DNA of 64,000 bases from Candidatus Limnocylindria bacterium (GTDB lineage: Bacteria; Chloroflexota; Limnocylindria; Limnocylindrales; CSP1-4), in contig DATKBR010000099.1 in NCBI GenBank assembly GCA_035513775.1, positions 1,879 through 65,878 on the forward strand, given 5' to 3'. The number at the start of each line of letters is the position of its first letter. Positions within the stretch are counted from its first letter, which is position 1. Positions 5,727 through 46,893 of this stretch are shown in pieces. The translations under genes and the position numbers were made by a program. The notes below the pieces were generated by a model. The model saw only the letters and a list, made by a program, of their open reading frames with translations, ran no database searches and was not told the origin of the DNA.

Positions 5727-6362
5727 TCAGGCCGTTCCGCCGACGATCACGACGTCAAGCACACGCGGTCCATGTACGCCCTCGACCCGCTGGAGCTCGA
5801 TGTCGCTCGTGGCCGATGGTCCGCTGATCCACGTGAGGGGGCGTCGCGGATCGAGCCGATCGAGCGCCTCCGGTACGGTCCCGACGACCCGCTCGGCGTC
5901 GACGATGCAGAGGTGCCGGTCGGGCAGGAGGCTCAACGCCCGGCGGCCCTGGCCAGGACCCGCATCGAGGACGATGGTCCCCGTCTCCGCGATCGCGATC
6001 GCGCAGTCGGTGATCACCCCATCGACGGCGTCGAGGTCGGTCACCGAGAGCGGCGGCTCGTCCCCGACGAGCTGCAGGTCGGCAGTCGCGGCAAGCCAGT
6101 CGACCGGCAGGCCAGACGGAACGACCAGTCGACTGACGCCGCGGAGCGCCAGGACCGATGCGATGACGCGGGGCAGCTCGGCCGCCGCGGCATGGTGGAC
6201 GGTGGCGCGGTAGTCGGCGACGCGCTCAGCGAACAGCCGAACCGGGTCGATGTCCGGCGGCAGGCGCCGCTCGTACTCGCGTGGGATGACCACCGCGGCC
6301 GGATCATCGACCAATGCCGCGGCGATCCGGGCGAGGATCGCCGAGCGAGCGTCGCTCATCAT
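5727..6362 (-). CDS. lutC: lactate utilization protein C (LutC/YkgG family)
   Basis: The start is chosen at the ATG in the ATGATGA overlap with the lutB stop (6359-6362). The product begins MMSDARSAILARIAAAL and shows LUD-domain-like sequence. It is the third gene of a lutA-lutB-lutC array. Confidence 0.8.
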   Translation of the reverse strand: MMSDARSAILARIAAALVDDPAAVVIPREYERRLPPDIDPVRLFAERVADYRATVHHAAAAELPRVIASVLALRGVSRLVVPSGLPVDWLAATADLQLVGDEPPLSVTDLDAVDGVITDCAIAIAETGTIVLDAGPGQGRRALSLLPDRHLCIVDAERVVGTVPEALDRLDPRRPLTWISGPSATSDIELQRVEGVHGPRVLDVVIVGGTA

Positions 6363-7870
6363 CCGCCCGTCCCCCCACCGGTCCGTCGCCACCACCGGCG
6401 GAACGCCTCTCGCGCCGGTGCCGGCAGATCGCGGCCGCGAAGCCACGAGCGGAGCCAGACCGGTCCCGGCGCCCGGCGGATCGGCCCGCCGAACCCGAGG
6501 ATGCGGCCGCCGAGGCTGGCCAGCCGTTCCGCGAATGAGAACCGGCGCGGACCCCGGAATGCCCACCCGATCGACGCCATGAGCACCGCCTCCTCGGAGG
6601 CGCGGGCCCGCCAGCCGCGCTGGTCCACGACCTTGGCGCGCAGGTGGACGAGCACCTGGGGGATGTCGATCCGCACCGGGCAGACCTCCAGGCACGCTCC
6701 GCACAACGTCGACGCATAGGGAAGCGACGCCGTCTGGGCGTCAACGGCGTGAACGTTGATCCCGCGCAACTGCGGCGTCAGGATCGCCCCGATGGGTCCC
6801 GGGTACGGCGACCCATAGGCGCTGCCACCCGTGCGCTCATAGACCGGGCAGACGTTCAGGCAGGCCGAGCACTTGATGCAGCGCAGGGCCTGACGCCCAA
6901 CCGGGTCGACGAGCGTGTCCGTCCGGCCGTTATCGAGCAGGATCAGATGGAAGGCCTGCGGGCCATCGCCAGGCGTGACCCCTGTCCACATCGAGGTGTA
7001 GGGGTTCATCCGCTCCGCCGTCGACGACCTGGGCAGGAGCTGGAGGAAGACCTCGAGGTCCTGCCAGCGCGGGACCAGCTTCTCGATCCCCATCACCGTG
7101 ATCAGCGTCTGGGGCAGCGTCAGGCACATCCGGCCGTTGCCCTCCGACTCGACGACCATCACGGTACCGGTCTCGGCCACGGCGAAGTTGGCGCCGGAGA
7201 CCGCCACCCTCGCCCGCAGGAACTTCTCGCGGAGGTGGAGCCTCGCCGCCTCCGCGAGAGCCCGGGGCTCGTCCGTCAGGTTCGGCGGCGCCGGCCGACC
7301 CACGCCGGCCATCTCACGCAGGAAGATGTCACGCACCTGCTGGCGGTTGCGGTGGATCGCGGGCACGAGAATGTGCGACGGGAGGTCCTCGCCCAGCTGG
7401 ACGATCAGCTCCGCAAGGTCGGTTTCCCATGCCGCGATCCCGGCCCGGCCGAGCGCCTCGTTGAGCTCGATCTCCTGGGTCACCATGGACTTGACCTTGA
7501 TCACCTCGTCCGATCCGGCGTCCCGGACGAGGCCGACGACGATCGCGTTCGCCTCCGCGGCGTCTCGAGCCCAATGGACGGTGCCGCCGGCCGCCGCCAC
7601 GGCCGCCTCGAGCTGGACGAGCAGGACCGGAAGCTGCTGGAGCGCGCTGTCCTTGATCGCCGCGCCCGCCAGCCGGAGGGCTTCCCAGTCTTCGCGCTCG
7701 GCGACAGCCTGCGCTCGCTTCGCCCTGATCGTGGCCGTGGCGCGCGCGAGGTTCACCCGCAGTTGGACGTCCGCAAGGGCGGCCCTGGCCGCGATCGGGA
7801 ATGGCGCCGTGCCCCTGAACGTCGGCACCGCGCGCGGCGCCCGGTCACCGGGGTCGCCACTGTCGATCAC
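6359..7870 (-). CDS. lutB: lactate utilization iron-sulfur protein LutB (YkgF family)
   Basis: 503 aa with two 4Fe-4S ferredoxin motifs (CIKCSACLNVCPVY and CGACLEVCPV). The GTG start overlaps the lutA stop (GTGA at 7867-7870). Confidence 0.9.
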   Translation of the reverse strand: MIDSGDPGDRAPRAVPTFRGTAPFPIAARAALADVQLRVNLARATATIRAKRAQAVAEREDWEALRLAGAAIKDSALQQLPVLLVQLEAAVAAAGGTVHWARDAAEANAIVVGLVRDAGSDEVIKVKSMVTQEIELNEALGRAGIAAWETDLAELIVQLGEDLPSHILVPAIHRNRQQVRDIFLREMAGVGRPAPPNLTDEPRALAEAARLHLREKFLRARVAVSGANFAVAETGTVMVVESEGNGRMCLTLPQTLITVMGIEKLVPRWQDLEVFLQLLPRSSTAERMNPYTSMWTGVTPGDGPQAFHLILLDNGRTDTLVDPVGRQALRCIKCSACLNVCPVYERTGGSAYGSPYPGPIGAILTPQLRGINVHAVDAQTASLPYASTLCGACLEVCPVRIDIPQVLVHLRAKVVDQRGWRARASEEAVLMASIGWAFRGPRRFSFAERLASLGGRILGFGGPIRRAPGPVWLRSWLRGRDLPAPAREAFRRWWRRTGGGTGG

Positions 7871-8610
7871 GACGGGCCGCCGGCGGCGAGGATCTCAGCG
7901 AGGTGCACCACTCGCACCGCCGAGCCGGTGCGCGAGAGCAATCCGCCGAGGTGCATGAGGCAGGACATGTCGGCCGCGGTGAGCACCGTGGCGCCGGAGT
8001 CCGTGATTGCGGCGATCCTATCGGCGCCCATCGCCAGCGAGGTATCGGCGTTCTTCACCGCGAACGTCCCGCCGAAGCCGCAGCACTGGTCAGCTCCTGC
8101 GACCTCTGCCAGGCTCAGCCCGCGGACTGCGGCGAGGAGCCGGCTCGGCCGGTCGCCGATCCCGAGGGTACGCACCGAGTGGCACGTCTGATGGAAGGCC
8201 ACCCGATAGGGGAACGCGGCGCCAACGTCTGTGACCCCGAGGATGTCGACCAGGAACTCGGTCAACTCGTACACGGGTGGCGCGGCGGCGACCCGCGCAG
8301 GCAGGGCGGGGTCCAGGCCGCGCGCGCTCGCAAGCCCGGCGACCGTGGCGTGCTCGCGACGGACCATGGCCGCACACGAGGGCGACGGCGTGACCACCGC
8401 GTCAAAGCCGGCGAACGTGTCCGTGAACCTGCGTACGAGCGGCACGCACGCCTCGTGAAAGCCGGTGTTGAAGTGTATCTGGCCGCAGCAGGTCTGGTCC
8501 GCAGGGAACTCGACCTCCTGGCCCAGTCGGCGGAGCAGCGTCACGACCGCCCTCCCGACGCCCGGGAAAAGCATGTCGTTGAAGCAGGTGATGAACAGCG
8601 CTACCCGCAT
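7867..8610 (-). CDS. lutA: (Fe-S) oxidoreductase LutA (YkgE family, CCG domains)
   Basis: 247 aa beginning MRVALFITCFNDMLFPGVG, with QTCCGQ and DQCCGFGG cysteine-rich CCG motifs. Confidence 0.9.
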   Translation of the reverse strand: MRVALFITCFNDMLFPGVGRAVVTLLRRLGQEVEFPADQTCCGQIHFNTGFHEACVPLVRRFTDTFAGFDAVVTPSPSCAAMVRREHATVAGLASARGLDPALPARVAAAPPVYELTEFLVDILGVTDVGAAFPYRVAFHQTCHSVRTLGIGDRPSRLLAAVRGLSLAEVAGADQCCGFGGTFAVKNADTSLAMGADRIAAITDSGATVLTAADMSCLMHLGGLLSRTGSAVRVVHLAEILAAGGPS

Positions 8611-8646: not shown

Positions 8647-9891
8647 TCAGTCCGGCGCGAGGCCGACCCCGCGTCCCGGGTGGGGGAGCGGTGCCTGCCA
8701 CGGGATGCCGGCCCGGATCGTGTTCCGGATCCGGATCCTTGCCGATGCGTGCCGGTCCGTCCGCACGCCGGACTGCTGCGCTCCCGAGTCCCTGAACGTG
8801 AAGTCGCCCTCCTCGACGTCGAACACCGTCAGGTCGGCGGTCCGGCCGAGCCCGATCGCGCCGATGGGCGAGGAGCGGCCGATCGCGGCTGCCGGCCGGC
8901 TCGTGACCGATTCGATCACCCGCGAGAGCGGCATGCCGAGCGCGAGGAACTTCGACATCGTCGTGGGCAGGTCGTAGACCGGCCCCGCCGCGCTCAGTGA
9001 GTGGATGTCAGTGCTGATCGTGTCCGGCCAGAAGCCCTCGGCGATCGCGATATCAGCGACGCGATACGAGAAGCTCCCCGAACCGTGCCCGACGTCGAAC
9101 AGGACGCCGCGGGCACGTGCCTCGTGGACCCCGCGCCCGAGCCGGCCGTCCTCGACGAGGGTATTGTCGGATCCGGTGAAGCAGTGGGTGACGATGTCGC
9201 CCGGTCGCATCAGCTCGAGCAGCTCGCCGATGGGGCGCGGGCAGTACCCGATGTGCATGATCACCGGGATGCCAGCTCCCTCGCCGATCGCGATTGCCCG
9301 CCGGAGGGGCTCGAGATCGTGGTCCCGGATGACCTGCGGCGCCGTCATCCGCACCTTGACCCCGATGACGATGTCCGGGTTCTCGCGCGCCGCCCGGATC
9401 CCGGCCGGGACGTCGAGCATGTCAAGATCCGTGGCCTCGCCGGCCGGCCAGGGGGCAAGCCCCACGTTCGACACGTGGAGGAAGGCGAGCACCCGGGTCC
9501 GGTTGGCCTCGACCGCCAGGCGGCGGAACGCCTCGATCGTGTGGGCGCCGGCGTCGCCAGCGCTGACGCAGGTCGTCACCCCGGTTGTCGAGCTGATCTC
9601 GTCGGCCGGGACCGTCAGGCCGCACACGCCGACGAAGACATGCGTGTGCAGGTCGATGAACCCCGGGGCCACGATGCGATCGGTGGCGTCGATCACCAGC
9701 GTCCCCAGGTCGAGCGGCATCTGCATCCGTCGCTCGGCGATCCGGTCCGAGAGATCCGGCCCGATGGCCGCGATCCGGCCGTACCGGACGCCGACGTCGA
9801 GCCGGGCATCCAGCCCGCTGCCCGCGTCGAGCACCCGTCCACCGCGGATTACCAGGTCGAGGGCCTGGTCGTCGTCGATGCGCAGTGTCAT
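8647..9891 (-). CDS. amidohydrolase-superfamily metallohydrolase (dihydroorotase/deacylase-like)
   Basis: 414 aa. The N-terminal beta-sandwich (LVIRGGRVLDAG...RIAAIGPDL) is followed by the metal-binding motif PGFIDLHTHVF, with later H and D ligands (VIMHIGY, LFDVGHG, STDIHS). Confidence 0.8.
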   Translation of the reverse strand: MTLRIDDDQALDLVIRGGRVLDAGSGLDARLDVGVRYGRIAAIGPDLSDRIAERRMQMPLDLGTLVIDATDRIVAPGFIDLHTHVFVGVCGLTVPADEISSTTGVTTCVSAGDAGAHTIEAFRRLAVEANRTRVLAFLHVSNVGLAPWPAGEATDLDMLDVPAGIRAARENPDIVIGVKVRMTAPQVIRDHDLEPLRRAIAIGEGAGIPVIMHIGYCPRPIGELLELMRPGDIVTHCFTGSDNTLVEDGRLGRGVHEARARGVLFDVGHGSGSFSYRVADIAIAEGFWPDTISTDIHSLSAAGPVYDLPTTMSKFLALGMPLSRVIESVTSRPAAAIGRSSPIGAIGLGRTADLTVFDVEEGDFTFRDSGAQQSGVRTDRHASARIRIRNTIRAGIPWQAPLPHPGRGVGLAPD

Positions 9892-9931
9892 CGCGAGCCT
9901 CCTGTTCGCCGGCCGTTCGCCGCGCCATGGG

Positions 9932-11158
9932 TCATGGGTGCAGCGCCTGCCGGATCCTGTCGAGCGCGTCGAGCCGCATCAGGCCGTAGTGGTAGAAGTC
10001 GACGCGGCTGACGGCGTGGCGCTCCGCGAGCTCTATCTTGACCCGCAGGTTATCGACGCTCGTGGAGTCCGGGGCTGTCGGCCGGAGCGCGACCACGAGG
10101 CGCGGCCCGGGACCCAGCACCTCGCGGTAGGCGGCCATGTCTCCCGCGATCCACGCCGGGTCAGCCGCGTAGCCCAGGATCTCGATGTCGTCGGATGCGC
10201 CCGCCAGGCCGGCGAGGTCCAGCCCGAGCTGCCACGCGATCGTCGGGCTGGGGGCCCCGACGGGCCGGCCCGTGGCGTATCCCTTGTACGCCCCTGACGG
10301 GTCGAGGAACGTGAGCCTGACGCCCGCGGCGGAGAGGACAACGCGGAGCTCCGCCGCCAGGCTGGTCACGACCCGCTCGCGCATCCGGAGGTAGCCGCCG
10401 AGGTCGCCGCCGGCCATGGCCGCGACCTCGTCCCGGGTCAGTTCGCCCGGCGGGTCGTCTACATCCGCCTGAAACGCCTGCTCGATCTGCCCCGCCGCCC
10501 AGCGCCGGATCGCCTCCCCGTCCAGCCCGTCGCGGCCGGCCTCGACCAGGCACGACGCGCAGAAGCAGAGCCCCATCAGCAGCCGTGTGCGCGGTCCCAA
10601 CGGCAGGAAGTAGCGCTCGTGGTGGACCCCGTGCTCGAGCGGGAAGAACTGGACGGCCTCCGAGAGCACCGTCCGGACCCCGCGTCCCGCGACGTCCCGG
10701 GCCAGCGCACGAGCGTAGGCGCGGCCCCCCGGGTTCGACGCGCAGAGGTCGGTCTGGATCGGGTCACCGAACGCGTTCCGCGGGGCCTGCTCGAGGTGCT
10801 CGCCGAGCCGGTCGTGGTGCAGGAACACCGTCCAGGCATGGACGTCGATGCCTCGCCGGTCGGCCGCGCCGACGAGGTCCGCGAGCGGATCGCCGGCGTC
10901 CGCGAGCCGGCTAGGGCGGGCCTTGACGGTCGAATCGGCCCAGGCCGCCGGGTTGGGGCGGAAGAATGTCGAGCCCGGCTCCAGGTAGCGGACGTGGCCC
11001 GACCGCCCATGCGGGAAGACGTCGCGGCCCTCGTGGTAGGTCACGGCCATGAGCACGCCGTTGGCTCCGGCCCGATCGACGACATTCGAGACGACTTCGT
11101 CGGCCCCCTCGTCGATGACGTCGTAGGCGAACGTGAACAGCGCCGCATCCATGCTCAT
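9932..11158 (-). CDS. uncharacterised conserved protein, paralogue A (CFCxxC motif, TIM-barrel-like guess)
   Basis: The real start is taken at the ATG in the ATGA overlap with the upstream PLP gene stop (11155-11158). The 593-aa ORF's N-terminal 185 aa is Arg/Gly/Pro shadow. It shares blocks with 45694-46893: FTFAxDxxDEGAD, AWTVxLH, GxHHER, CFCxxC and the C-terminal FYxYGxMRLxALDxIRxAL. Confidence 0.7.
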   Translation of the reverse strand: MSMDAALFTFAYDVIDEGADEVVSNVVDRAGANGVLMAVTYHEGRDVFPHGRSGHVRYLEPGSTFFRPNPAAWADSTVKARPSRLADAGDPLADLVGAADRRGIDVHAWTVFLHHDRLGEHLEQAPRNAFGDPIQTDLCASNPGGRAYARALARDVAGRGVRTVLSEAVQFFPLEHGVHHERYFLPLGPRTRLLMGLCFCASCLVEAGRDGLDGEAIRRWAAGQIEQAFQADVDDPPGELTRDEVAAMAGGDLGGYLRMRERVVTSLAAELRVVLSAAGVRLTFLDPSGAYKGYATGRPVGAPSPTIAWQLGLDLAGLAGASDDIEILGYAADPAWIAGDMAAYREVLGPGPRLVVALRPTAPDSTSVDNLRVKIELAERHAVSRVDFYHYGLMRLDALDRIRQALHP

Positions 11159-12237
11159 GTCGCAGGATGTCCCTTCGATGCCGAGGCCATGTCGAGGATC
11201 GCATCCCGGTAGGCGAACACCGCGGGCAGGCCGCCGGTGTGGAGGAATACGACCGTGTCCGTGCTCGTGAGTTGTCCTTGCTGGACGGCGGCGATCAGGG
11301 CCGCCATCGCCTTGCCCGTGTAGACAGGGTCGAGCAGCAGCCCTTCCCTGCGAGCGACGATGCGCATCGCGTCGAGCCCCGCGGCAGACGGCCGGGCGTA
11401 GCCTGGCCCGATGAACCGGTCGTCCGTGTCGATCTCTGTCTCGGAGACCGACAGGCGGAGGCCCAGGACGCCGGCGGCGAGGTTGGCTGATTCGGCGGTT
11501 CGGGCGGCCATGCTCGGGCCGGCCCAGGTAATAGGCGCGATCCCCTTGACGGCCACGTCCCACCCGACCGCCTTCGCCCCCAGGACCAGTCCGCTCTGGG
11601 TTGGGCCCGCCGCCGCTGCCCAGATGTGGGTTGGCGTGACCCCGGCCGCCTCGCACTGGGCCATCAGCTCGGGCACCGCGGCGACGTAGCCGAGGGCCGC
11701 GCTCGGCGCCCACGGGTCGATCTTGAACGCCCGCCTCCCGGCCGCTCGCAGCTCGTCCACGATCTCGTCGAGCCGCTCGGCCACGACGAAGGTGATGTCC
11801 GCCTCATCGACGAAGCGGACGTCGGCTCCCAACCAGAGGTCCAGCAGGACGTTGCCCTGGATCTCGGGCATCTCCGTGTTGCGCAGGACGAGGACGATCG
11901 GGATGCCGAGCTTGGCCGCTGCCGCCGCGGCCTGTCGGGACCAGTTTGACTGGATGTTGGCGCCGGTCACGAGCACCTCCGGCTGGCGGATCAGCAGGTC
12001 GCCGAGGACGTATTCCAGGGTGCGCGTCTTGTTGCCGCCGAACGCCAGACCGGTGAGGTCGTCCCGCTTGACGAGGATGCGCGGCCCGCCGAGCGTCTCC
12101 GACAGCCTCGGGAGCTCCTCGAGCGGCGTCGGGAAGTGGCCCAGCCTGACCCGGGGCTGGTTGTCGATCCTCGCGAGCAGCTCGGCGGCAGTGACCCGTG
12201 ACGGCAGGTCCGCCGAGCCTGCAGACGCAGAGGTCAC
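11155..12237 (-). CDS. PLP-dependent ACC deaminase / D-cysteine desulfhydrase family enzyme
   Basis: 360 aa. The PLP-lysine motif AFGGNKTRTLEYVL is typical of the tryptophan-synthase-beta-fold ACCD/DcyD family. Confidence 0.85.
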   Translation of the reverse strand: MTSASAGSADLPSRVTAAELLARIDNQPRVRLGHFPTPLEELPRLSETLGGPRILVKRDDLTGLAFGGNKTRTLEYVLGDLLIRQPEVLVTGANIQSNWSRQAAAAAAKLGIPIVLVLRNTEMPEIQGNVLLDLWLGADVRFVDEADITFVVAERLDEIVDELRAAGRRAFKIDPWAPSAALGYVAAVPELMAQCEAAGVTPTHIWAAAAGPTQSGLVLGAKAVGWDVAVKGIAPITWAGPSMAARTAESANLAAGVLGLRLSVSETEIDTDDRFIGPGYARPSAAGLDAMRIVARREGLLLDPVYTGKAMAALIAAVQQGQLTSTDTVVFLHTGGLPAVFAYRDAILDMASASKGHPAT

Positions 12238-13052
12238 GCCGGGCGCTCGCCTGTGACGGGGCTGCGGAGCGCCCCGATCCCATCGATCGCCGCCACCATC
12301 GTGTCCCCGGCCGCCAGGAAGACAGGTGGCTTCCGGAACACGCCGACACCCGGTGGGGTACCGGTGAGGATGACGTCACCCGGCTCGAGGGTGAAGTGGT
12401 GCGCGCAGAAGGTCATCAGGGAGGGCACGTCGAACAGCAGCTGGTCCGTGTTCGAGCGTTGCATGACGACGCCGTTCACGTGCATCGAGAGCGCGAGGTG
12501 GACGGGATCCGGGAGACCCTCGGGCGTAACCAGCCACGGCCCCATGGGACAGAAGGTGTCGATGGACTTCGCCCGGACAAACTGGACATCACGCGCCTGC
12601 AGGTCCCGGGCGGAGACGTCGTTGGCGATCGTGTACCCCGCGACGGTCGGCCGTCCCGCGCGGTCCCGGGCCCCGACCACGACGGCGAGCTCAACCTCCC
12701 AGTCGACGTTGGTGACGCCGGTCGGCCACGAGACCGGGGTGTCGGGGCCGACGATCGAGCTCGGGAACTTGGCGAAGACGAGCGGCTCGACCGGTGGCTG
12801 GATCCCCTGCTCGAGACAGTGGTCCCGGTAGTTCATCCCGATCGCAATCACCTTGGCGGGTCGCGGCACCGGAGCCATGAGGCGGACTTCCCCGTAGCGG
12901 ACCGAGGGTGCGTTACCAGATGGGACAACCCAGTCGGCCCGCGGGATGGCGAGCAGCGCCTCCATCGGTACGCCCAGATCCACGACGCGGTCCTCGACGA
13001 CCAGGGCGGCCGAGTCGCGGCCCCCGCCGATGTCGATCGACGCAACTCGCAT
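12234..13052 (-). CDS. fumarylacetoacetate hydrolase (FAH) family protein
   Basis: 272 aa. FAH-domain blocks are present: VIAIGMNYRDHCLEQG...PLVFAKFPSSIVGP and LEPGDVILTGTPPGVG. An ATGA overlap joins it to the downstream gene. Confidence 0.85.
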   Translation of the reverse strand: MRVASIDIGGGRDSAALVVEDRVVDLGVPMEALLAIPRADWVVPSGNAPSVRYGEVRLMAPVPRPAKVIAIGMNYRDHCLEQGIQPPVEPLVFAKFPSSIVGPDTPVSWPTGVTNVDWEVELAVVVGARDRAGRPTVAGYTIANDVSARDLQARDVQFVRAKSIDTFCPMGPWLVTPEGLPDPVHLALSMHVNGVVMQRSNTDQLLFDVPSLMTFCAHHFTLEPGDVILTGTPPGVGVFRKPPVFLAAGDTMVAAIDGIGALRSPVTGERPA

Positions 13053-13058: not shown

Positions 13059-13532
13059 CTACTCCCTCCACTCCAGGATGGCGTCGACCTCTACGGACAT
13101 CCCGAACGGCAGGTCAGGGACCCCTACCGACGTCCGGCTGGCGATGGTGGCCGGGCCGTACAGGTCGCGCAGCAGATCCGAGAACCCGTTGAGGACGCGC
13201 GGCTGCTCCGTAAACCCCTCGACAGCGTTCACGTAGCCCGTGACCCGGAGCCACTGGACGACGTCGTCGAGCGAGCCGAGCTCACGTTCGATGGTGCCGA
13301 GCACGTTGAGGGCGGTCAGTTGCGCTGCGGCGATGCCGTCGTCGACCGTGAGGTCCCGCCCGATCTTGCCGAGATACAGCCACTCGTCACCGAACGTCGG
13401 GCCGTGACCGGCGACGTAGACGGTCCGGCCGCTCTTGGCCAAGCGACGGTACGTCAGCGTGACTCCGGGCGGGATCACCTGGCCCGGCGGGATCACCAGG
13501 CCCCGCGAAGCGAGCTTCTCGCGGATTGTCAT
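13059..13532 (-). CDS. RidA/YjgF/TdcF-family protein
   Basis: The start is chosen at the ATG at 13532 (MTIREKLASRGLV), preceded by GGAG. The C-terminal block ASRTSVGVPDLPFGMSVEVDAILE is typical of the family. The longer ORF start at 13580 would bury an operator-like palindrome. Confidence 0.75.
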   Translation of the reverse strand: MTIREKLASRGLVIPPGQVIPPGVTLTYRRLAKSGRTVYVAGHGPTFGDEWLYLGKIGRDLTVDDGIAAAQLTALNVLGTIERELGSLDDVVQWLRVTGYVNAVEGFTEQPRVLNGFSDLLRDLYGPATIASRTSVGVPDLPFGMSVEVDAILEWRE

Positions 13533-13542
13533 GTCGCTCCGG

Positions 13543-13555
13543 TTGGTCTGACCAA
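13543..13555. promoter_or_regulatory. putative GntR/FadR-type operator TTGGTCTGACCAA
   Basis: Perfect 5-3-5 inverted repeat (TTGGT-CTG-ACCAA) lying 11 nt upstream of the RidA start codon. It is a member of the recurring GGY-N3-ACC motif. Confidence 0.55.
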
Positions 13556-13606
13556 TTCGGTTGCTTCGCGGGGTCGCCACCCTCGCCTCGATGACCGCGC
13601 GTGATG

Positions 13607-13635
13607 ATCATAGCTAGCTGATAGATCACCAACAA
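13607..13635 (-). promoter_or_regulatory. candidate sigma-70-type promoter for the RidA-FAH-PLP operon (-35 TTGTTG, 17 nt, -10 TATGAT)
   Basis: Read on the minus strand, TTGTTG (13635-13630) is followed by a 17-nt spacer and TATGAT (12-7 of 136xx: 13612-13607). The site is in the AT-richest part of the divergent intergenic region. Confidence 0.4.
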
Positions 13636-13653
13636 CCCTTGAGATGGCTATTC

Positions 13654-13666
13654 TTGGTCGAACCAA
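13654..13666. promoter_or_regulatory. putative GntR/FadR-type operator TTGGTCGAACCAA
   Basis: 5-3-5 inverted repeat lying 48 nt upstream of the SDR start. It abuts a TATTCT -10-like hexamer at 13649-13654. Confidence 0.55.
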
Positions 13667-13713
13667 CCCGCACAACCGGGCTGCCACCCCGGGCCGAGAC
13701 GACAGGAGCCCAG

Positions 13714-14502
13714 ATGGACCCGAACCACTCCTTTGATGGGCGTGTCGCCCTCGTAGTCGGCGCGGCCGGAGGGATCGGCCGGGCGACGGCACGGGCGTTC
13801 GCTGGCGCGGGAGCTGTCGTGGCCATGGCAGATCTCGACGCCGACTCCACCCGTGCCGCCGCGGAGGGGTTCCCGCCCGGCACGCGTTCATTCCACGCGG
13901 TGGACCTGGCGCAGCCGGGCGGTCCGGCAGCCCTGGTCCGCGAAGTCGTGGAGGCCCACGGCAAGCTGCACGTGGTCGTCGGGGCGGCCGGCTTTCTTCG
14001 CGTGGCCTCGCTGCGCGACCTCGAGGTCGAGGACTGGGACCGCACCCTGGCGGTGAACCTCAGGGGCAACGTCCTCCTCGCCCAGGCGGCGGCGACGGTG
14101 TTCCTCGAGCAGGGCATCCAGGGACGGATCGTCGTGATCGCGTCCATCGTCTCGCGCCTGGCGCGCCTCAACAACGTCGCGTACGCCGCGTCCAAGGCGG
14201 GCCTGGTGCAGGCGGTCAGGTGCATGGCACTGGAGCTGGCGCCGCACGGGATCACGGTCAACGCGGTGTCGCCCGGTTCCACTGCTACGCCGATGCTCCT
14301 CGAGGTGCAGATGCGCGGTTCGAACGAGGCCCTGCGACAGGCCATCGAGGGCGACCTCGCGACGTGGCGGCTGGGCGTGCCCCTGGGCCACCTTGCCGAT
14401 CCGGCGGACCAAGCCGCAGCCATCCTGTTCCTGGCCTCGGACGCCGCCCGACACGTCACCGGGCAGGAACTCTTCGTGGACGGCGGCCAGACCGTCGTCT
14501 GA
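13714..14502 (+). CDS. SDR-family oxidoreductase
   Basis: The ATG at 13714 is preceded by AGGAGC. The product begins MDPNHSFDGRVALVVGAAGGIGRATA (TGxxxGIG motif). The catalytic YAASK and the C-terminal VTGQELFVDGG are present. Confidence 0.85.
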   Translation: MDPNHSFDGRVALVVGAAGGIGRATARAFAGAGAVVAMADLDADSTRAAAEGFPPGTRSFHAVDLAQPGGPAALVREVVEAHGKLHVVVGAAGFLRVASLRDLEVEDWDRTLAVNLRGNVLLAQAAATVFLEQGIQGRIVVIASIVSRLARLNNVAYAASKAGLVQAVRCMALELAPHGITVNAVSPGSTATPMLLEVQMRGSNEALRQAIEGDLATWRLGVPLGHLADPADQAAAILFLASDAARHVTGQELFVDGGQTVV

Positions 14503-14536: not shown

Positions 14537-15865
14537 CTAGAAGAAGGTGGGGACCAGGCCTCGGACCCGTCGGGCGTCATCGACCGCGAGCATGACCCGC
14601 CAGCGCTCGAACGCCTCACAGGGGTGCGAGATTCCACATCCGATGAGATCGCCGGGCGCCGGATCGATGCGGCCGCCGAGGTCCAGGTAGGCATGTTGGT
14701 CGTCCATCCGTCGGACACGGATGGCGGGCTCGATCGGCTCGACTTCGTGGCCGCGCCGGAGGTGCCACCGGGCCAAGGGCGTGTCGATGCGCGCCGGCGC
14801 GTCGCGGTGGCCGAAACCCACTACCGCGAGCTCACGCTCCGGCCGGGAGATAACGACTCCCCAGAGCTCGAGCGCTGCCTGCAGCCGGCCGTACTGCGGG
14901 AGCCGACCGCTGGTGGCCGACATCGGGGATGACCGCAGGTAGAGGCCGTCGTCGTGCGTCACGTAGCCACCCGGCCGGAGGACCAGTTGGTAGTCGGGCA
15001 AGGCCGACCTGCCAAGCATGGCCACCACGCGGTCGAAGTAGACGCTGCCTCCGGCACTCACCAGCGGCTTCGCGACGGCAAGGTCGGGCAGGATCCGGCG
15101 TGCGACCTCGGCGAGCGAATCAAGGTACGCGTCCGCGGCCAGCTCGCGGGCCTCCGCCGTGTCCCCGGGAGCAATCCCCTCATATCCCTCGATCCCGAGG
15201 AGTTCGACCCGGGGATGCGCCTCGCGAGCGGCGCGGATGACGCGGTCGATCGAGCCCGGGTCGCGAGCCCCGGCGCGGCCGCCCGGGAAGCCATGCTCGA
15301 CGAGCATGCCGACGGGGCGATCGAGCCCAGCCGCCGTTGCGGCATCCGCCCACGCTGCCACATTGACCGGATCATCTACCAGTACGATCAGCGAGAACGT
15401 GGGATCGGCGGACAGCTCGGCGACGAGCCTGCCGATCTCGCCGGGATGGGTGACCTCGTTCGCGATGAGGATCCGGCCGATGCCGAACGCGCGGCAGCTG
15501 AGTGCCTGCCGCGTGGTTGCGACCGTCACGGCCCACGCCCCAGCCCGCAGCTGCTCGGCAATGATGTGCGGGGCCATGGTCGTCTTGCAGTGCGGCGCCA
15601 GCCAGGCCCCCGCATCGTCGCAGAAGGACTGCATGGTCGCGATGTTTGCCAGGAGGGAGTCCCAGCGCACGACCATCTGAGGGAAGGTCACGCGGTCGTC
15701 GAACGCGGAGATCCCGGCTTCGGCGATGCCCGCCGGCGTCGCGGCGACGTCACGCGGCCCGCTGCGGAAGGAGGGATCGAGGGGCCGTGCCGCCCAGCTG
15801 CGCAGCGCTGCGTCGAGCGGCGCGAGTCCCGTCCCGGTGGCCGCTGCGTCGCCCGCGGCCGTCAC
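14537..15865 (-). CDS. DSD1-type PLP enzyme (alanine-racemase-fold N domain plus D-serine-dehydratase-like C domain)
   Basis: 442 aa. The GTG start overlaps the stop of the lipoyl-domain gene (GTGA at 15862-15865). It carries the PLP-lysine block LAPHCKTT and overall resembles the D-Ser dehydratase / D-Thr aldolase / D-3-hydroxyaspartate enzyme family. Confidence 0.75.
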   Translation of the reverse strand: MTAAGDAAATGTGLAPLDAALRSWAARPLDPSFRSGPRDVAATPAGIAEAGISAFDDRVTFPQMVVRWDSLLANIATMQSFCDDAGAWLAPHCKTTMAPHIIAEQLRAGAWAVTVATTRQALSCRAFGIGRILIANEVTHPGEIGRLVAELSADPTFSLIVLVDDPVNVAAWADAATAAGLDRPVGMLVEHGFPGGRAGARDPGSIDRVIRAAREAHPRVELLGIEGYEGIAPGDTAEARELAADAYLDSLAEVARRILPDLAVAKPLVSAGGSVYFDRVVAMLGRSALPDYQLVLRPGGYVTHDDGLYLRSSPMSATSGRLPQYGRLQAALELWGVVISRPERELAVVGFGHRDAPARIDTPLARWHLRRGHEVEPIEPAIRVRRMDDQHAYLDLGGRIDPAPGDLIGCGISHPCEAFERWRVMLAVDDARRVRGLVPTFF

Positions 15866-16107
15866 GCGGGATCGGTGTCGTCGATGTAGCCGAGTACGAT
15901 CTCGACGGGGACGGGATCGTTGCTGGCGGCCACGAGGATCTCGAGCCGTCCGTCCGCAGGAGCCTCGATCTCGGCGTTGGCCTTGTCGGTCTCCACGACG
16001 AGCAAAGGGTCGCCCTTGGCGACGCGCTCTCCGCTATGCCGCAGCCACTCCACGACCGTCGCCGACTCCATCAGGCCCAGTTGCGGGATGACGATCTCGG
16101 TCCTCAT
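15862..16107 (-). CDS. free-standing lipoyl-attachment domain protein (81 aa)
   Basis: MRTEIVIPQLGLMESATVVEWLRHSGERVAKGDPLLVVETDKANAEIEAPADGRLEIL carries the ETDKA lipoyl-lysine motif. The ATG lies in an ATGA overlap with the RidA stop (16104-16107). No E2 catalytic domain follows. Confidence 0.8.
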   Translation of the reverse strand: MRTEIVIPQLGLMESATVVEWLRHSGERVAKGDPLLVVETDKANAEIEAPADGRLEILVAASNDPVPVEIVLGYIDDTDPA

Positions 16108-23944: not shown

Positions 23945-25531
23945 ATGGCGGGTGCCGTCGACGTCGTGATACGGCACGGCTCCATCATCGACGGTCTGGG
24001 CGCCCCCGCCGTCCGAGGGGATATCGCGATCGACGGCGACCGGATCGTGGCCGTCGGGCCCGGCCTCAGTGCCGACGCGCGCGAGGTCGTGGACGCAGAC
24101 GGACTCGCGGTGGCTCCGGGCTTCATCGACCTCCACGCGCACGCGGACCTGGGACTGCTTGCCGATGGGCGCTGGCAATCCTCGCTGGACCAGGGCGTGA
24201 CGACCCTGGTCATCGGCCAGGACGGGCTGGGTTTGGCCCCGCTCAACGATCGCGCGGTGGCAATCCGGCGCGAGCTGCGGGGCATCAACGGCGATCCGGA
24301 CGTTGTGTCCTGGACGTGGCGCACGTTCGCCGAGTACCTGGCCCGGATGGAGGGCCGGATCGGGCCGAACGTCGCGGCCATGGTCCCCCACGGGACGATC
24401 CGGCTCGTGGTGATGGGCGAGGACGATCGACCGCCAACCGAGTCCGAGCTCGTCGAGATGCAGGCGCTCGTCATGCGCTCAATGCAACAGGGGGCATTCG
24501 GGCTGTCGGCGGGGCTGACCTACGCGCCCGCCACATTCGCGGACGACGAGGAGCTGGTTGCCCTCTGCCGCGAGATTGCCCCGTTCGGCGGCTTCTACCA
24601 GCCGCACCATCGGAACTACGGCGAGTGGGCAATCCGCGAGTTCGCCGCGTCGATCGAGATCGGCCGACGCGCTGGTGTCCCCGTCCACCTGACGCACGCT
24701 CACCTCAGCTTCCCGGTCAACGCCGGACGTGCGCACGAGCTGCTGTCGCTCGTGGACGAGGCGCGCGCGGCCGGCCACGACGTCACGCTCGACTCCTACC
24801 CGTACCTCGCCGGAGCGACGTACCTGGGAGCGTTCCTCCCGTCATGGGCGCAGGTCGGCGGCCCCGACGGCGTCGTCGCCCGCCTCGGCGATCCGGCTGC
24901 CCGCGCGCGGATTGCGGGCGAGATGGTCCGGGGTTGCGACGGCCTCCAGGGGATCCCGGTCGACTGGTCCCTGATCACCGTAGCCGGGGTCGACTCCCCG
25001 GCGATGTCCGCCGTCGTCGGGAAGTCGATCGACGAGCTCGCGGCGGCGTGGGGTACATCGGCCTTCGACGCCTTCTGCCGGCTCCTCGTCGACGACCGCA
25101 TGGGCACGATGGCGCTGCTCACGGTCGGGCACGAGGACAACGTGCGCGCCATCATGGCGCACCCCATGCATATGCCGGCCAGCGACGGGATCGTCATCGG
25201 CCAGCGTCCACATCCGCGTGCCTGGGGCACATTCGCCCGGTTCCTCGGGGTCTACGTCCGTGAGCTCGGGCTCGTGCCGCTCGAGGAGATGGTCAGGAAG
25301 ATGACCTCGGCGCCCGCTCGGCGCCTCGGCCTCGTGGATCGCGGCGTCCTGCAACGCGGCATGGCTGCCGACATCGTCGTCTTCGATCCGCGGACGATCA
25401 TCGACCGCGCGACCTACGCCGAGCCGAAGCGCCCCCCCGAAGGCGTCGACGCCGTCCTCGTCAACGGGGCCTTCGTGCGTCGCGACGGCCGCTCGCTCGA
25501 CCCTCGATCCGGTCGTGTCCTTCGACGGTGA
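23945..25531 (+). CDS. N-acyl-D-amino-acid deacylase (D-aminoacylase) family amidohydrolase
   Basis: 528 aa. VVIRHGSIIDGLGAP...IAIDGDRIVAVG...APGFIDLHAHAD...QGVTTLVIGQDG is colinear with characterised D-aminoacylases. Confidence 0.85.
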   Translation: MAGAVDVVIRHGSIIDGLGAPAVRGDIAIDGDRIVAVGPGLSADAREVVDADGLAVAPGFIDLHAHADLGLLADGRWQSSLDQGVTTLVIGQDGLGLAPLNDRAVAIRRELRGINGDPDVVSWTWRTFAEYLARMEGRIGPNVAAMVPHGTIRLVVMGEDDRPPTESELVEMQALVMRSMQQGAFGLSAGLTYAPATFADDEELVALCREIAPFGGFYQPHHRNYGEWAIREFAASIEIGRRAGVPVHLTHAHLSFPVNAGRAHELLSLVDEARAAGHDVTLDSYPYLAGATYLGAFLPSWAQVGGPDGVVARLGDPAARARIAGEMVRGCDGLQGIPVDWSLITVAGVDSPAMSAVVGKSIDELAAAWGTSAFDAFCRLLVDDRMGTMALLTVGHEDNVRAIMAHPMHMPASDGIVIGQRPHPRAWGTFARFLGVYVRELGLVPLEEMVRKMTSAPARRLGLVDRGVLQRGMAADIVVFDPRTIIDRATYAEPKRPPEGVDAVLVNGAFVRRDGRSLDPRSGRVLRR

Positions 25532-44372: not shown

Positions 44373-45497
44373 TCACTGCACGCGTCCTCTGGCGGCAACG
44401 CGCCAGCGGTCGACGACCGCTCCGGACTCCGCGACCAGCAGCTCGTCCGTGAGGTTGACGACCGTGCAGGCATGGCTCGGGATGATGGCCACGCGGTCGC
44501 CGACCCGCAGCGGCGAGCCCGGTGGCACGGCGATGATCCCGTGCTCCTCGTTGACGCGCACCACCTGGTAGTCGGGCCGGTCGGCGAGCTGCCCTACGAT
44601 CGGAGGGGCGCCACGCTTGTTCACGCGGTCCGATGAGAGGGTCTTGGAACCCGCGTCGACGACGACCCAGCTGTGGTGCACGCTGACGACCGTCGCCACG
44701 ACCCAGATCGCGACGTCGTCCAGCGTGGCCGCTCCCTGGGCGACGGTGGTCACGTCGTGGAACACGTAGGTGCCGGGGCGCAGCTCGGTCACGCCTGGAG
44801 CCCGCATCCCGAACCGGGCGGTCGCCGTCGAACCGACCGAGACCCGGTTGACCTCCAACCCGCGCGCCCTGATGGCCTCCGCGACCCACACGACCTGGGC
44901 ACATGCCGCGAGCGTCTCGCGCTCCAGCTCGGCGTGGGTGGCCGAACGGGGCAGCGCATGGCCTTCGTGGGTCAGGACGCCGTCAAAGCCGATACCGGGC
45001 AGGGCTGCGATGTGCAGCGCAAGGTCGACCGCGCCCTCGTCCGGTGGCACGCCGATGCGGTCCAGCCCAGTGTTCAGCTCCAGGAGCACGGGGATCACCA
45101 GGCCGCGGGCGTGCGCGGCCCGGCCGATCGGCGCAGCGACTTCGAGCGAGTCCAGGCTGACCGAGAGCTGGACTCGCTCCGCGAGGTCCAGCAACCGCGC
45201 AACCTTGGCGGCACCAACGACCGGGTAGCCGATGAACAGGTCCGTGACGCCGCTGGCCAGGAGCACCTCCGCCTCGCCGAGCTTGGCCACCTGCAGCCCG
45301 GACGCCCCGGCGTCCAGCTGCATCCGGGCAATCTCGAGCGTCTTGTGTGCCTTGGTGTGAGGTCGGAGGCCCCTGCCGCTGTCCCTGGCCATCGCCGCCA
45401 TCCGCTCGACGTTGCCGCGGACGACCGGTGCATCGACCACGACAGCCGGCGTGTCGGGGACGGCGTCGAGGACCGCCAGCCTTTGGTCGAGGGTCAT
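44373..45497 (-). CDS. DSD1-type PLP enzyme (D-serine dehydratase / D-threonine aldolase-like), second copy
   Basis: The ATG at 45497 is preceded by GGGAGGG. PAVVVDAPVVRGNVERMAA...LRPHTKAHKTLEIARMQL carries the PLP lysine. The C-terminal block VNEEHGII...GDRVAIIPSHACTVVN is present. Confidence 0.8.
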   Translation of the reverse strand: MTLDQRLAVLDAVPDTPAVVVDAPVVRGNVERMAAMARDSGRGLRPHTKAHKTLEIARMQLDAGASGLQVAKLGEAEVLLASGVTDLFIGYPVVGAAKVARLLDLAERVQLSVSLDSLEVAAPIGRAAHARGLVIPVLLELNTGLDRIGVPPDEGAVDLALHIAALPGIGFDGVLTHEGHALPRSATHAELERETLAACAQVVWVAEAIRARGLEVNRVSVGSTATARFGMRAPGVTELRPGTYVFHDVTTVAQGAATLDDVAIWVVATVVSVHHSWVVVDAGSKTLSSDRVNKRGAPPIVGQLADRPDYQVVRVNEEHGIIAVPPGSPLRVGDRVAIIPSHACTVVNLTDELLVAESGAVVDRWRVAARGRVQ

Positions 45498-45693
45498 GTC
45501 GCCAGTCCCTCCCGCCGATCCGCGTTCGCCACTTGCCGGAGTCCGTGACCTGCACGGAGGATATCCTGCTGCTGCCGCCCGGCCGTGGCGGGGATCGGCC
45601 TCGTGGCCGCGAGCCTGCGCGACAAGCCGACTGCCTGTACGACAGTATGACGATGCGCCCGCCGACGAGCGCGCATCATGCTGAGTGCTCGCA

Positions 45694-46893
45694 ATGGCCT
45701 CGACCTCGACCACGCTCCTCACCTTCGCGATCGATCTCCTCGATGAGGGGGCCGATGTCGTTGCGCGGCGCGCGGTGGACGCCGGCTTGACCTGTCTATC
45801 GACGACGGCCGCCTACCATGCCGGCCGCGACCTTCTCCCGCACAACCCGGTGCGCTCCATCGCGTACCAGCCGAGCGGCGCCGTCTACTTTCAGCCGGAC
45901 TGGGGCGTATATGGTGACGACATACTGCGTCCGGTAGTGGCCCCGGTCGTCGGTTCGAGGGACGTGATGGTCGAGCTTGCGGAGGCCGCGACCCGGCACG
46001 GCCTGGCGACGTCGGCCTGGACGGTTATCCTGCACAACTCCCGCCTGGCGGAGGCGAGGCAGGACCTCGCCCCGCAGACGGCCCTCGGCGACCGGCTCCT
46101 GCACATGCTGTGTCCGGCGAACCCGGCGGTCCAGGCGTACGCCACCGCCTTGGCCTGCGACATCGCGGGTCGCGGGCCGTCGATCATCCACCTGGAGTCG
46201 ATGACCTACCTGCCGTTCGACCACGGCGGTCATCACGAGCGGGTGATGATCCCGCTCCGCGCTCAGGAGCGACGAATGCTCGGCGTCTGCTTTTGTGGCG
46301 CCTGCATCGAGGCGGCGAAGGCAGGCGGCGTGGATGGAGACGCCGTTCGCCGCGCAGTCGGGCGGCATCTCCGGTGCGTGCTCGACGGTCCCGGGAGCGC
46401 GATCGGCGACGCGGATCCATCCCTCGAGCGGATGCTCGATGACTACCTGGCGACCCGCCGAGCGATGATCTCGGCCTTCGTCGAGCACGTCTCCGGAAGC
46501 GTGCGCTCAAGGGCGCCGAACGTGGAGATCGCCGTCATCGACGTGTCGGGCTACTTCGCCTCGTTGGACCCGCGCACCCGATCAGTCGACGTCGCGGCCA
46601 GCGATGGCTTCGACCTGGGCAGGATGGCAGGGCCGGTCGACCGCGTCTCGGTCACGGCGTACTTCCAGGACGTCGAGCGATACCGGCGCGAAGTGTCCGA
46701 CTACGTAGAGACCCTGGGTGACCCGTCGCTGCTCGAGGTGATCCTCCGCCCTGGCCCGCCCGACAGCCACAGCCCAGAAGACCTACGACTCCGCGTGCAG
46801 ATTGCTCGCGACGCGGGGGTCCGTCATCTCGCGTTCTACAACTACGGGATGATGCGGCTGGAGGCGCTCGACTGGATCCGCGCAGCCCTCTAG
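45694..46893 (+). CDS. uncharacterised conserved protein, paralogue B (CFCxxC motif)
   Basis: ATG at 45694, with an alternative GTG at 45685. MASTSTTLLTFAIDLLDEGAD...AWTVILHN...GGHHERV...CFCGACIEAAK...FYNYGMMRLEALDWIRAAL is colinear with 9932-11158. Confidence 0.7.
   Translation: MASTSTTLLTFAIDLLDEGADVVARRAVDAGLTCLSTTAAYHAGRDLLPHNPVRSIAYQPSGAVYFQPDWGVYGDDILRPVVAPVVGSRDVMVELAEAATRHGLATSAWTVILHNSRLAEARQDLAPQTALGDRLLHMLCPANPAVQAYATALACDIAGRGPSIIHLESMTYLPFDHGGHHERVMIPLRAQERRMLGVCFCGACIEAAKAGGVDGDAVRRAVGRHLRCVLDGPGSAIGDADPSLERMLDDYLATRRAMISAFVEHVSGSVRSRAPNVEIAVIDVSGYFASLDPRTRSVDVAASDGFDLGRMAGPVDRVSVTAYFQDVERYRREVSDYVETLGDPSLLEVILRPGPPDSHSPEDLRLRVQIARDAGVRHLAFYNYGMMRLEALDWIRAAL

Follow-up and report, generated by a model that had tools for sequence, protein, structure and literature searches.

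The closest described counterpart of the gene clusters considered here is the ong cluster of Pseudoalteromonas prydzensis (Jiang et al., 2022; PMC9537276), which converts GlcNAc1A, the aldonate of N-acetylglucosamine (GlcNAc) found in oxidised chitin, overall to 2-keto-3-deoxygluconate 6-phosphate (KDG-6-P). OngA, a glycoside hydrolase (GH) of family GH20, splits GlcNAc-GlcNAc1A; OngB, of the D-aminoacylase family, deacetylates GlcNAc1A; OngC, a fold-III pyridoxal-phosphate (PLP) enzyme related to D-serine dehydratase and D-threonine aldolase, deaminates the product to 2-keto-3-deoxygluconate (KDG); the RidA protein of the set is OngD, and the kinase acting on KDG is KdgK (PMC9537276). The cluster has been reported only from Gammaproteobacteria and one betaproteobacterium (PMC9537276), and its substrate GlcNAc1A exists in a lactone/acid equilibrium (PMC12017989). 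Here we describe an unnamed protein family (family X), two members of which, X_A and X_B, are encoded in a 64,000-nucleotide stretch of contig DATKBR010000099.1 from Candidatus Limnocylindria bacterium (Chloroflexota; assembly GCA_035513775.1), hereafter called the window. Family X is new; we take X_A and X_B to be enzymes of the cytoplasm, and among the GH42/GHL6/GHL10 barrels the family forms a remote branch of its own. The neighbourhoods of X follow the enzymatic logic of ong in other phyla, with two tightly coupled extra genes, X itself and a short-chain dehydrogenase/reductase (SDR); such an ong-like amino-aldonate pathway is previously undescribed for these phyla. Judged by the place of X in this pathway, we consider it a serious possibility, somewhat short of an even one, that X hydrolyses the N-acetylhexosaminono-1,5-lactone made by the SDR. 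The two genes are as follows.

9932..11158, minus strand: X_A (P0001), 408 aa, member of the unnamed GH-like (beta/alpha)8-barrel family
45694..46893, plus strand: X_B (P0002), 399 aa, old paralogue of X_A from another subfamily

The original prediction had described the two products as colinear paralogues, which they are: they align over their full length with 35% identity and 51% positives (BLASTP, E 1e-73). All the motifs it listed are present in both copies, i.e., (F/L)TFAxDxxDEGAD, YHxGRD, AWTV(F/I)LH, CxxNP, GxHHER, (L/V)CFC(A/G)xC and the C-terminal FY(H/N)YG(L/M)MRL block, and most residues of these shared motifs are invariants family-wide. X_B is 40-45% identical to many family members and 83% identical to one metagenomic protein, compared to 35% for X_A. 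Because X_B is nearer to other family members than to X_A, the two are old paralogues of different subfamilies, and a recent tandem duplication was rejected on the same ground. The window, with about 70% GC, comes from a metagenome-assembled genome (MAG) of 2.46 Mb that is 81% complete and holds only these two X copies. The ATG of X_A overlaps the stop codon of the upstream PLP gene as ATGA (11155-11158), and X_B has an alternative GTG start at 45685. Metagenomic proteins that are 84-90% identical to X_A also exist.

In a Pfam and NCBIfam scan of X_A and X_B, no model reached its cut-off; against GHL10 (PF02638; cut-off 27.9 bits), X_A scored 16.5 bits and X_B 11.2 bits. Searches of the Protein Data Bank (PDB) by phmmer and by profile returned no sequence relative, only a sub-threshold GHL10/Cwp19 signal that included a marginal Cwp19 match. 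The family is large. A word-seeded search found at least 828 homologues, and those listed were all named "hypothetical protein" but for one evident misannotation, while an exhaustive profile search over 1.84 billion representatives gave 2,333 clusters at 50% identity with E<=1e-3, of which 748 had E<=1e-30. The view that these proteins cannot be placed in any named family was thus confirmed, and an assignment to a well-characterised family of unrelated role was not seen, the only links being the remote ones to GHL6, GHL10 and GH42. Among contigs taken from one genome per species, 401 stretches encode an X relative. The carriers are nearly all uncultured soil or mat lineages, in Actinomycetota (Gaiellales, Rubrobacteraceae, other Thermoleophilia and Acidimicrobiia), Chloroflexota (Thermomicrobiales and Roseiflexus) and Dormibacterota. 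X is absent from 48 other species of the window's genus and from 32 of its order, and the region is therefore accessory in this lineage. At least the X-bearing part of the island was probably gained or retained only in this species.

The AlphaFold model of X, built from a 41-sequence alignment, is a single-domain (beta/alpha)8 barrel (predicted local distance difference test 91.2; predicted template-modelling score 0.91) with strands at residues 4-9, 34-40, 105-111, 163-167, 281-286, 324-328, 353-358 and 383-388; its only low-confidence stretch, residues 177-180, lies in the beta4-alpha4 loop. The 50 best Foldseek matches in the PDB are all GH-type barrels. The top matches are the C-terminal domain of PgaB (GH153; E 6e-12, template-modelling (TM) score 0.6-0.7), Cwp19 (GHL10), the GH156 inverting sialidase, GH20 hexosaminidases and lacto-N-biosidases. 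The earlier guess of a TIM-barrel-like enzyme is therefore correct, with glycoside-hydrolase barrels as the nearest folds. A Pfam scan of 41 members at loose thresholds gave weak GHL10 matches in 22 (best E 0.0035) and GHL6 matches in eight (E>=0.025); no member reached the GHL6 (PF14871) cut-off of 35 bits, and GH42 (PF02449) matched none of the 41 even at E up to 5. When X was compared by hhalign with alignments of GH42, GHL10 and GHL6 proteins (14 in the case of GHL6) from genomes of the same phylum, the probabilities were 97.1% for GHL6 (E 7e-11, 309 columns), 93.6% for GHL10 and 86% for GH42. At the level of profiles, the match between X and GHL6 indicates relatedness within a superfamily only.

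GHL6, the best profile-profile match of X, is itself uncharacterised ("hypothetical glycosyl hydrolase 6"). The helix-strand block before beta-3, the Cys of C-x-x-(N/S)P, the acidic residue of beta-4 and the CxCxxC motif (CFCPTC or CYCxxC) align between the two families. GHL6 proteins are, however, about 650-780 aa long with extra C-terminal domains, whereas X, at about 400 aa, consists of the barrel alone, and they have Asp at the position of E167 of X and no HHER loop. GH42 beta-galactosidases share with X the (beta/alpha)8 barrel, a carboxylate at the end of beta-4 and, in part of the family, a four-cysteine (Cys4) site made of one Cys after beta-3 and CxCxxC after beta-4. Unlike X, they have the NEY motif, the beta-7 "ME" nucleophile and trimerisation and C-terminal domains, while X has a 25-residue His-rich loop inserted between beta-4 and CxCxxC. 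The nearest solved folds, GHL10/Cwp19 (PF02638; PDB 5OQ2) and the C-terminal domain of PgaB (GH153; PDB 4P7O), match X with E 1e-10 to 6e-12 and TM 0.58-0.70; their identity to X is 10-13% and the Cys4 site is absent from both. Both are secreted and act on GlcNAc-containing polymers, in contrast to the cytoplasmic X with its small-molecule catabolic operon.

The residues that bear on catalysis and metal binding are located as follows.

10742-10744, with CFCASC at 10550..10567, minus strand: C139 and C198, C200, C203 of X_A; proposed Cys4 metal site
10658..10660, minus strand: E167 of X_A, at the end of beta-4; acid/base position of clan GH-A
10613..10624, minus strand: HHER of X_A, residues 179-182, in the beta4-alpha4 loop
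10082..10084, minus strand: R359 of X_A, at the end of beta-7; position of the nucleophile Glu in GH42 and clan GH-A
46288..46305, plus strand: CFCGAC of X_B, with HHER at 46231-46242 and CPANP at 46111-46125

Conservation was counted over 128 representatives that are 26-50% identical to X_A. D13, Y41, H42, W109, H114, C139, H176, H180, C198, C200, C203, R260, Y330 and Y389 are kept in at least 93% of them, and E181 and Y391 are also near-invariant; about 20 polar residues in all are conserved down to 26% identity. E167 is present in 128 of the 128, each of the four Cys in 127, and each of H42, H114, H176 and H180 in at least 120. In the model, many of these residues stand at the C-terminal ends of strands, i.e., D13 at beta-1, Y41/H42 at beta-2, H114 at beta-3, E167 at beta-4, Y330 at beta-6 and Y389/Y391 at beta-8, while H176, H180 and E181 sit in the beta4-alpha4 loop.

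The hhalign alignments place the "TDLC139PxNP" and "GLC198FC200xxC203" of X on the Cys of GH42 "CYCDxC" and GHL6 "CFCPTC". In GH42, Cys113, Cys153, Cys155 and Cys158 bind a structural zinc (PMC8573354). Because C139 and CFCxxC align with these zinc-binding Cys, CFCxxC very probably forms three-quarters of a GH42-type Cys4 zinc site, with the metal presumed from GH42. A GH42-like CxCxxC is also carried by 12 of the 14 GHL6 proteins examined (L116-L129, same phylum), and the Cys4 site therefore appears ancestral to the GH42/GHL6/X supergroup. The reading of the four Cys as a [4Fe-4S] dehydratase site was rejected, as motif and position align with the GH42/GHL6 Cys site.

The invariant E167 ends beta-4 in X without an N-E-Y motif, and hhalign sets the NE of GH42 opposite E175 instead; E175 was rejected as the acid/base, being conserved in only 35 of the 128 representatives as against the invariant E167. 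The column of R359 holds R in 101 of the 128, the rest being chiefly Q (8), S (6) or N (4), and Glu is not among its commonest residues. With R at the beta-7 nucleophile position, X does not qualify as a classical retaining glycosidase. A centre this rich in His and Arg would suit metal- or His-assisted hydrolysis of a small substrate that bears or forms a carboxylate.

In the GH156 inverting sialidase (PDB 6S00), which ranks fourth among the Foldseek matches (E 4e-9), the catalytic Asp14 follows directly after beta-1, His134 is catalytic, and Arg129 and Arg202 bind the carboxylate (PMC6811678). The invariant D13 after beta-1, H114 and conserved Arg of X recall this centre and may be its counterparts; GH156 lacks the Cys4 site and has no sequence similarity to X. 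These observations bear on the alternative that X really is a glycosidase, working by a non-classical mechanism that is substrate-assisted or uses an inverting Asp/His pair as in GH156. Its substrate would be an amino-sugar glycoside with a carboxylate on the aglycone or the sugar, such as GlcNAc-beta-1,4-GlcNAc1A from oxidised chitin; X would then be the cytoplasmic counterpart of OngA, and oxidation of the freed GlcNAc by the SDR would bring both halves into the aldonate route. We regard this alternative as unlikely. It draws on the top structural matches, all of which are glycoside hydrolases with N-acetyl amino sugars or sialic acid as substrates, on the remote homology of X to GHL6, GHL10 and GH42, and on the likeness of D13 and the conserved His and Arg to Asp14/His134 and Arg129/Arg202 of GH156, but the beta-7 nucleophile is absent and four near-invariant His would be unusual for a glycosidase.

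The gene neighbourhoods point to a pathway. We fetched 80 loci with 10-kb flanks, together with 4 reached through homologues, and counted neighbours within 5 kb in the 47 loci that have at least 5 kb on both sides of X. An SDR was found in 40 of the 47, a DSD1-type fold-III PLP enzyme in 31, a D-aminoacylase-type deacetylase in 38 (the long Amidohydro_3 type in 30 and the short EF_0837-type amidohydrolase in 8) and a 2-keto-3-deoxy-6-phosphogluconate (KDPG) aldolase in 13. In a control set of 40 D-aminoacylase loci from the same phylum, X occurred in none, an SDR in 7 and a DSD1-type enzyme in 3 (Fisher p 1e-10 for SDR and 1e-8 for DSD1). Of the two co-occurrences raised by the original prediction, that with DSD1-type genes is therefore real (31/47 vs. 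3/40), whereas that with ACC-deaminase-fold genes is not general (0 of the 47 complete related loci). Its overall interpretation held up: an unplaced, hydrolase-like TIM-barrel family with a central place in the island. It had linked neither the Cys motif to the GH42-type Cys4 site nor the neighbourhood to the ong pathway.

When 965 neighbouring open reading frames from 85 loci were clustered de novo, the ranking was the same, with an SDR in 54 loci, Amidohydro_3 in 53 (34 directly adjacent to X) and the short type in 7 more, DSD1 in 48 and RidA in 26. Rarer recurrent neighbours were sugar and branched-chain-type ATP-binding cassette (ABC) transporters, amidase, isochorismatase, PfkB (13 loci), RraA-like aldolase, GFO/IDH/MocA, M20, a histone-deacetylase-like (HDAC-like) deacetylase, major facilitator superfamily (MFS) sugar porters, AP_endonuc_2, GntR-UTRA and ROK regulators, Amidohydro_2, KDPG aldolase (8-13 loci, depending on the count), HpcH-type aldolase and S15 peptidase. 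The gene most commonly found directly upstream of X is a same-strand SDR (16 loci, gaps of 4-181 nt), and a recurrent minimal set consists of MFS porter, ROK, SDR, X, RidA, Amidohydro_3 and DSD1. Three of five partner SDRs tested pass the cut-off of the NCBIfam glucose 1-dehydrogenase subfamily, with one KduD-like and one DhbA-like. The long amidohydrolase adjoining X has N-acyl-D-glutamate deacylase and D-aminoacylase among its matches (about 1e-83) and also matches PpOngB (2e-61).

Thus, as in the ong cluster, a D-aminoacylase-family deacetylase, a fold-III PLP deaminase, RidA, a PfkB kinase and KDPG aldolase stand around X, and one X fusion carries a GH20 domain of the OngA kind. The published ong cluster, in contrast, has neither X nor an SDR, and the X clusters belong to Actinomycetota and Chloroflexota, with cytoplasmic dehydrogenases, various transporters and often non-phosphorylative end steps. 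The ong-type core of deacetylase, fold-III PLP enzyme and RidA is present around X, the window included; the KDG kinase and KDPG aldolase exit and the GH20 entry were not found in the window, and the exit is found in part of the other loci.

In the proposed pathway, an NAD(P)-dependent SDR (or GFO/IDH/MocA enzyme) would oxidise C1 of an N-acetylhexosamine to the 1,5-lactone, X would convert the lactone into the N-acetyl-amino-aldonate, the D-aminoacylase-type amidohydrolase would take off the acetyl group, and the DSD1-type PLP enzyme (in the window possibly also the DcyD-type) together with RidA would eliminate the 3-OH and the amine to give a 2-keto-3-deoxy-aldonate, which an aldolase would split. 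Since such a pathway starts from the N-acetylhexosamine rather than from a ready-made aldonate, it needs a C1 dehydrogenase and, for speed, a lactonase. X is the candidate because it is the only conserved gene left, standing between the SDR and the deacetylase in operons and fusions, and because no conventional lactonase family recurs among the X neighbours except Amidohydro_2 (8 loci). Chemically, water activated by D13 or E167, or bound to a metal, might attack C1 while a His protonates O5 and Arg residues hold the carboxylate. A glycosidase-type pocket would be well suited to a planar C1 lactone, which would also account for the fusion to GH20; derivatives of N-acetylglucosaminono-lactone are classical inhibitors of hexosaminidases that resemble the transition state. 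Three things in this scheme are inferred: the lactonase chemistry, the choice of zinc as metal, and which sugar is degraded.

The lactonase families considered, i.e., SMP-30/gluconolactonase, the PF10282 beta-propeller, Amidohydro_2/LigI-type, phosphotriesterase-like and metallo-beta-lactamase (MBL) fold, are absent from the Pfam and NCBIfam matches of X and from its 50 best folds. A conventional lactonase replacing X in X-less ong-like clusters was sought in the 40 D-aminoacylase control loci, of which only 3, too few, had a DSD1 neighbour. A search of the literature for a cytoplasmic route through an N-acetylhexosamine 1-dehydrogenase and lactonase found nothing relevant. As a more tentative proposal, we suggest that a GH-type barrel of the GH42/GHL6 lineage, which kept its Cys4 site, exchanged its nucleophile for Arg and gained a His-rich centre, turned into a sugar-lactone hydrolase, and that together with a dedicated SDR it defines a non-phosphorylative, oxidative route, so far undescribed, that soil Actinomycetota and Chloroflexota would use for N-acetyl amino sugars in the cytoplasm, extending ong well beyond Gammaproteobacteria.

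It should be noted that a number of observations weigh against lactone opening. The role is drawn only from pathway position, and the close structural neighbours of X are all glycosidases or lytic transglycosylases, with no esterase among them. Sugar 1,5-lactones open spontaneously, and the Pseudoalteromonas ong pathway runs without a lactonase. Families that include lactonases are also at hand, with Amidohydro_2 in eight X loci and an MBL-fold hydrolase in one of the window's two clusters. The assignment of the partner SDRs, one of them KduD-like and one DhbA-like, is generic. The MAG encodes neither a GH20 enzyme nor an AA10 lytic polysaccharide monooxygenase (LPMO), and in the X part of the GH20-X fusion protein described below, Lys takes the place of E167, a residue invariant elsewhere. 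Finally, genes for amidases, peptidases of the M20 and S15 families, isochorismatase and HDAC-like proteins turn up in many X loci, and the true substrate may therefore be more complex than a simple N-acetylhexosamine.

Several of these neighbours bear on the other readings. For a glycosidase, the CUT1-type (SBP_bac_1) oligosaccharide ABC transporters found in 13 loci would be fitting, but many SDR-X operons stand beside monosaccharide-type MFS porters with no other glycosidase, and the tight same-strand pairing of SDR and X is more typical of consecutive steps. It is also conceivable, if doubtful, that X carries out another step on a sugar or sugar acid, either as a metal-dependent epimerase or isomerase of an N-acetyl-amino-aldonate or its lactone or as a lyase; a lyase would eliminate a substituent, for example an ether or a glycosidic group, once the SDR had introduced a keto function, in the manner of the 3-keto-glycoside and levoglucosan routes. 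A centre rich in His, Asp and Glu would suit metal-dependent chemistry, pairing with an NAD(P) dehydrogenase also fits oxidation followed by elimination, genes of the GFO_IDH_MocA and AP_endonuc_2 kinds, which are characteristic of these routes, are recurrent neighbours of X, and lutABC next to X_A would fit the release of a lactyl group. None of the top structure or profile matches, however, resembles a xylose-isomerase-like or enolase barrel, and the minimal sets are complete if X is a lactonase but otherwise lack a separate lactone-opening enzyme.

A role outside amino-sugar acids would find X as a hydrolase of a D-amino-acid or peptide island, acting on N-acyl-D-amino acids or muropeptides, or as a mainly ligand-binding or structural partner of the amidohydrolase. 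The window island is rich in aminotransferases, M20 peptidases, Dpp-type ABC genes and orphan E1 subunits and has a long D-aminoacylase, and amidase, M20, S15, HDAC-like, isochorismatase and branched-chain-type ABC genes recur near X elsewhere. We nevertheless hold this role to be very improbable: a sugar-derived substrate is suggested by the PfkB kinases, the aldolases of KDPG and HpcH type, the transporters for sugars, the regulators (ROK, GntR-UTRA) and the fusion to GH20, and although E167 is lost in the GH20-fused copy, as binding would allow, the conservation of about 20 polar residues down to 26% identity speaks for catalysis rather than mere binding.

Three fusion proteins join X to other activities. 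P0157 (L085:5478-8414) is a 978-aa protein in which GH20b and GH20 domains, the latter with the catalytic motif HLGGDE, are followed by X, and its gene adjoins those of a D-aminoacylase, a DSD1-type enzyme and a PfkB-RidA fusion in a compact cluster. The Lys at E167 of its X part means that the fused X may bind its ligand rather than turn it over. If X were a glycosidase, the canonical GH20 of this cluster would already give OngA activity and make a second such enzyme redundant. P0157 has a low-complexity linker of about 45 aa and occurs on one contig only; a lost stop codon or an assembly error is possible. Beside it, L085:4019-5473 encodes a PfkB sugar kinase and RidA in one 484-aa product, which joins two steps, KdgK and OngD, that are separate in ong. 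In P0191 and P0204, a short amidohydrolase is followed by X in one protein, and P0191 lies between RidA/DSD1 and a ROK gene. A glycosidase would also fit these two fusions, since its product would feed the deacetylase directly.

Two further kinds of loci should be mentioned. In Chloroflexota/Dormibacterota-type loci, an isochorismatase-family hydrolase is a fixed divergent neighbour of X in 11 cases (L005, L007, L008, L009, L013, L016, L024, L026, L027, L029 and L056, around 9300-10000), often together with amidase, Peptidase_S15, HDAC-like deacetylase and RraA-like aldolase genes, which suggests a more heavily N-acylated or ether-linked substrate for this subfamily. In Roseiflexus (L090:2760-11239), X stands with ROK, a CUT1 sugar ABC transporter, a protein like carbohydrate-binding module CBM9, a 245-aa protein of unknown kind and an SDR, with no amidohydrolase or DSD1 nearby, and the SDR-X pair can therefore occur without the ong-like module.

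In the window, X_A and X_B belong to two clusters, A and B, whose other features are listed below.

5727..8610, minus strand: lutA/lutB/lutC-like lactate-utilisation genes (CCG; LUD plus 4Fe-4S; LUD), downstream of the short amidohydrolase
8647..9891, minus strand: short metallohydrolase of the amidohydrolase/deacetylase family, EF_0837-like (NF006689, 376 bits, cut-off 371), 40 nt downstream of X_A
11155..12237, minus strand: fold-type II PLP enzyme of the D-cysteine desulfhydrase (DcyD)/CuyA/1-aminocyclopropane-1-carboxylate (ACC)-deaminase family, directly upstream of X_A
12234..13052, minus strand: fumarylacetoacetate-hydrolase (FAH)-family hydrolase; best model 2,4-didehydro-3-deoxy-L-rhamnonate hydrolase, below cut-off
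13059..13607, minus strand: RidA/YjgF-family protein, first gene of the X_A operon
13639..14502, plus strand: SDR1, transcribed divergently from the X_A operon; member of the SDR cluster found with X at 54 of 85 loci
14537..15865, minus strand: DSD1a, fold-III PLP enzyme (Ala_racemase_N plus D-ser_dehydrat)
16104-16547: second RidA of the cluster A region
23945..25531, plus strand: long D-aminoacylase-family Amidohydro_3, 51% identical to one that adjoins X elsewhere
42464-43306, minus strand: SDR2, 208.6 bits, just short of the 215-bit cut-off of the glucose 1-dehydrogenase subfamily model
43307-44182, minus strand: MBL-fold hydrolase, downstream of DSD1b
44373..45722, minus strand: DSD1b, fold-III PLP enzyme, divergent from X_B

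Cluster A runs on the minus strand in the order RidA, FAH, DcyD/CuyA-type PLP enzyme, X_A, short amidohydrolase, lutA, lutB and lutC, with SDR1 divergent and DSD1a, RidA and an RraA-like aldolase just beyond. In a 73%-identical relative, the pair of X followed by the short amidohydrolase is kept, accompanied by a GFO/IDH/MocA dehydrogenase, a sugar ABC transporter, DSD1 and an HpcH aldolase. Neither PfkB nor KDPG aldolase was found near X in the window, where the FAH, RraA-like and lutABC genes stand instead. Under the lactonase reading, cluster A might act on an N-acetyl-(6-deoxy)hexosamine through oxidation, ring opening, deacetylation and PLP-dependent elimination with RidA, followed by 4-oxidation, FAH cleavage to pyruvate and lactate, and oxidation of the lactate; the exit would thus run through an SDR and the FAH hydrolase, with lutABC taking the lactate-type product. 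Such a substrate would give every cluster A gene a role, and the identity of the sugar is speculative.

In cluster B, X_B is divergent from DSD1b, which is followed by the MBL-fold hydrolase, SDR2 and E1 alpha/beta. The best PDB relatives of DSD1b are D-threonine aldolase and D-threo-3-hydroxyaspartate dehydratase. Its longest open reading frame runs 29 nt into X_B on the opposite strand, the first 75 residues being rich in Arg, Ala, Gly and Ser, and its conserved domain begins near residue 89; the true start is likely the Met at 45497, so that about 195 nt are left for a divergent promoter region. A relative with 83% identity shows X_B in translational coupling with a keto-deoxy-acid aldolase of the HpcH/HpaI type. 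The long amidohydrolase at 23945-25531 is flanked on one side by an IF-2B/MtnA-like gene and on the other by two tandem SBP_bac_5 binding proteins, which belong to an ABC system of Dpp/Opp type. The MAG has two GH18 genes but no GH20 or AA10 LPMO; the organism probably lives by scavenging amino sugars in soluble form and not by an oxidative attack on chitin.

Family X is large and unnamed, with no Pfam model and no structure, and its carriers dominate many soils but are seldom grown in culture. The constant company of the deacetylase/deaminase pair known from the ong pathway points to a concrete assay. Should X prove to be a lactonase, it would fill the missing step and be the first lactonase on a glycoside-hydrolase scaffold, a new scaffold outside the known lactonase families, and soil Actinomycetota and Chloroflexota would oxidise N-acetyl amino sugars intracellularly; should it prove to be a glycosidase, it would form a new GH family with an unusual catalytic centre that lacks the usual nucleophile. 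Either outcome would improve the annotation of hundreds of genomes and give a better picture of the turnover of carbon and nitrogen from chitin, peptidoglycan and related amino-sugar polymers.

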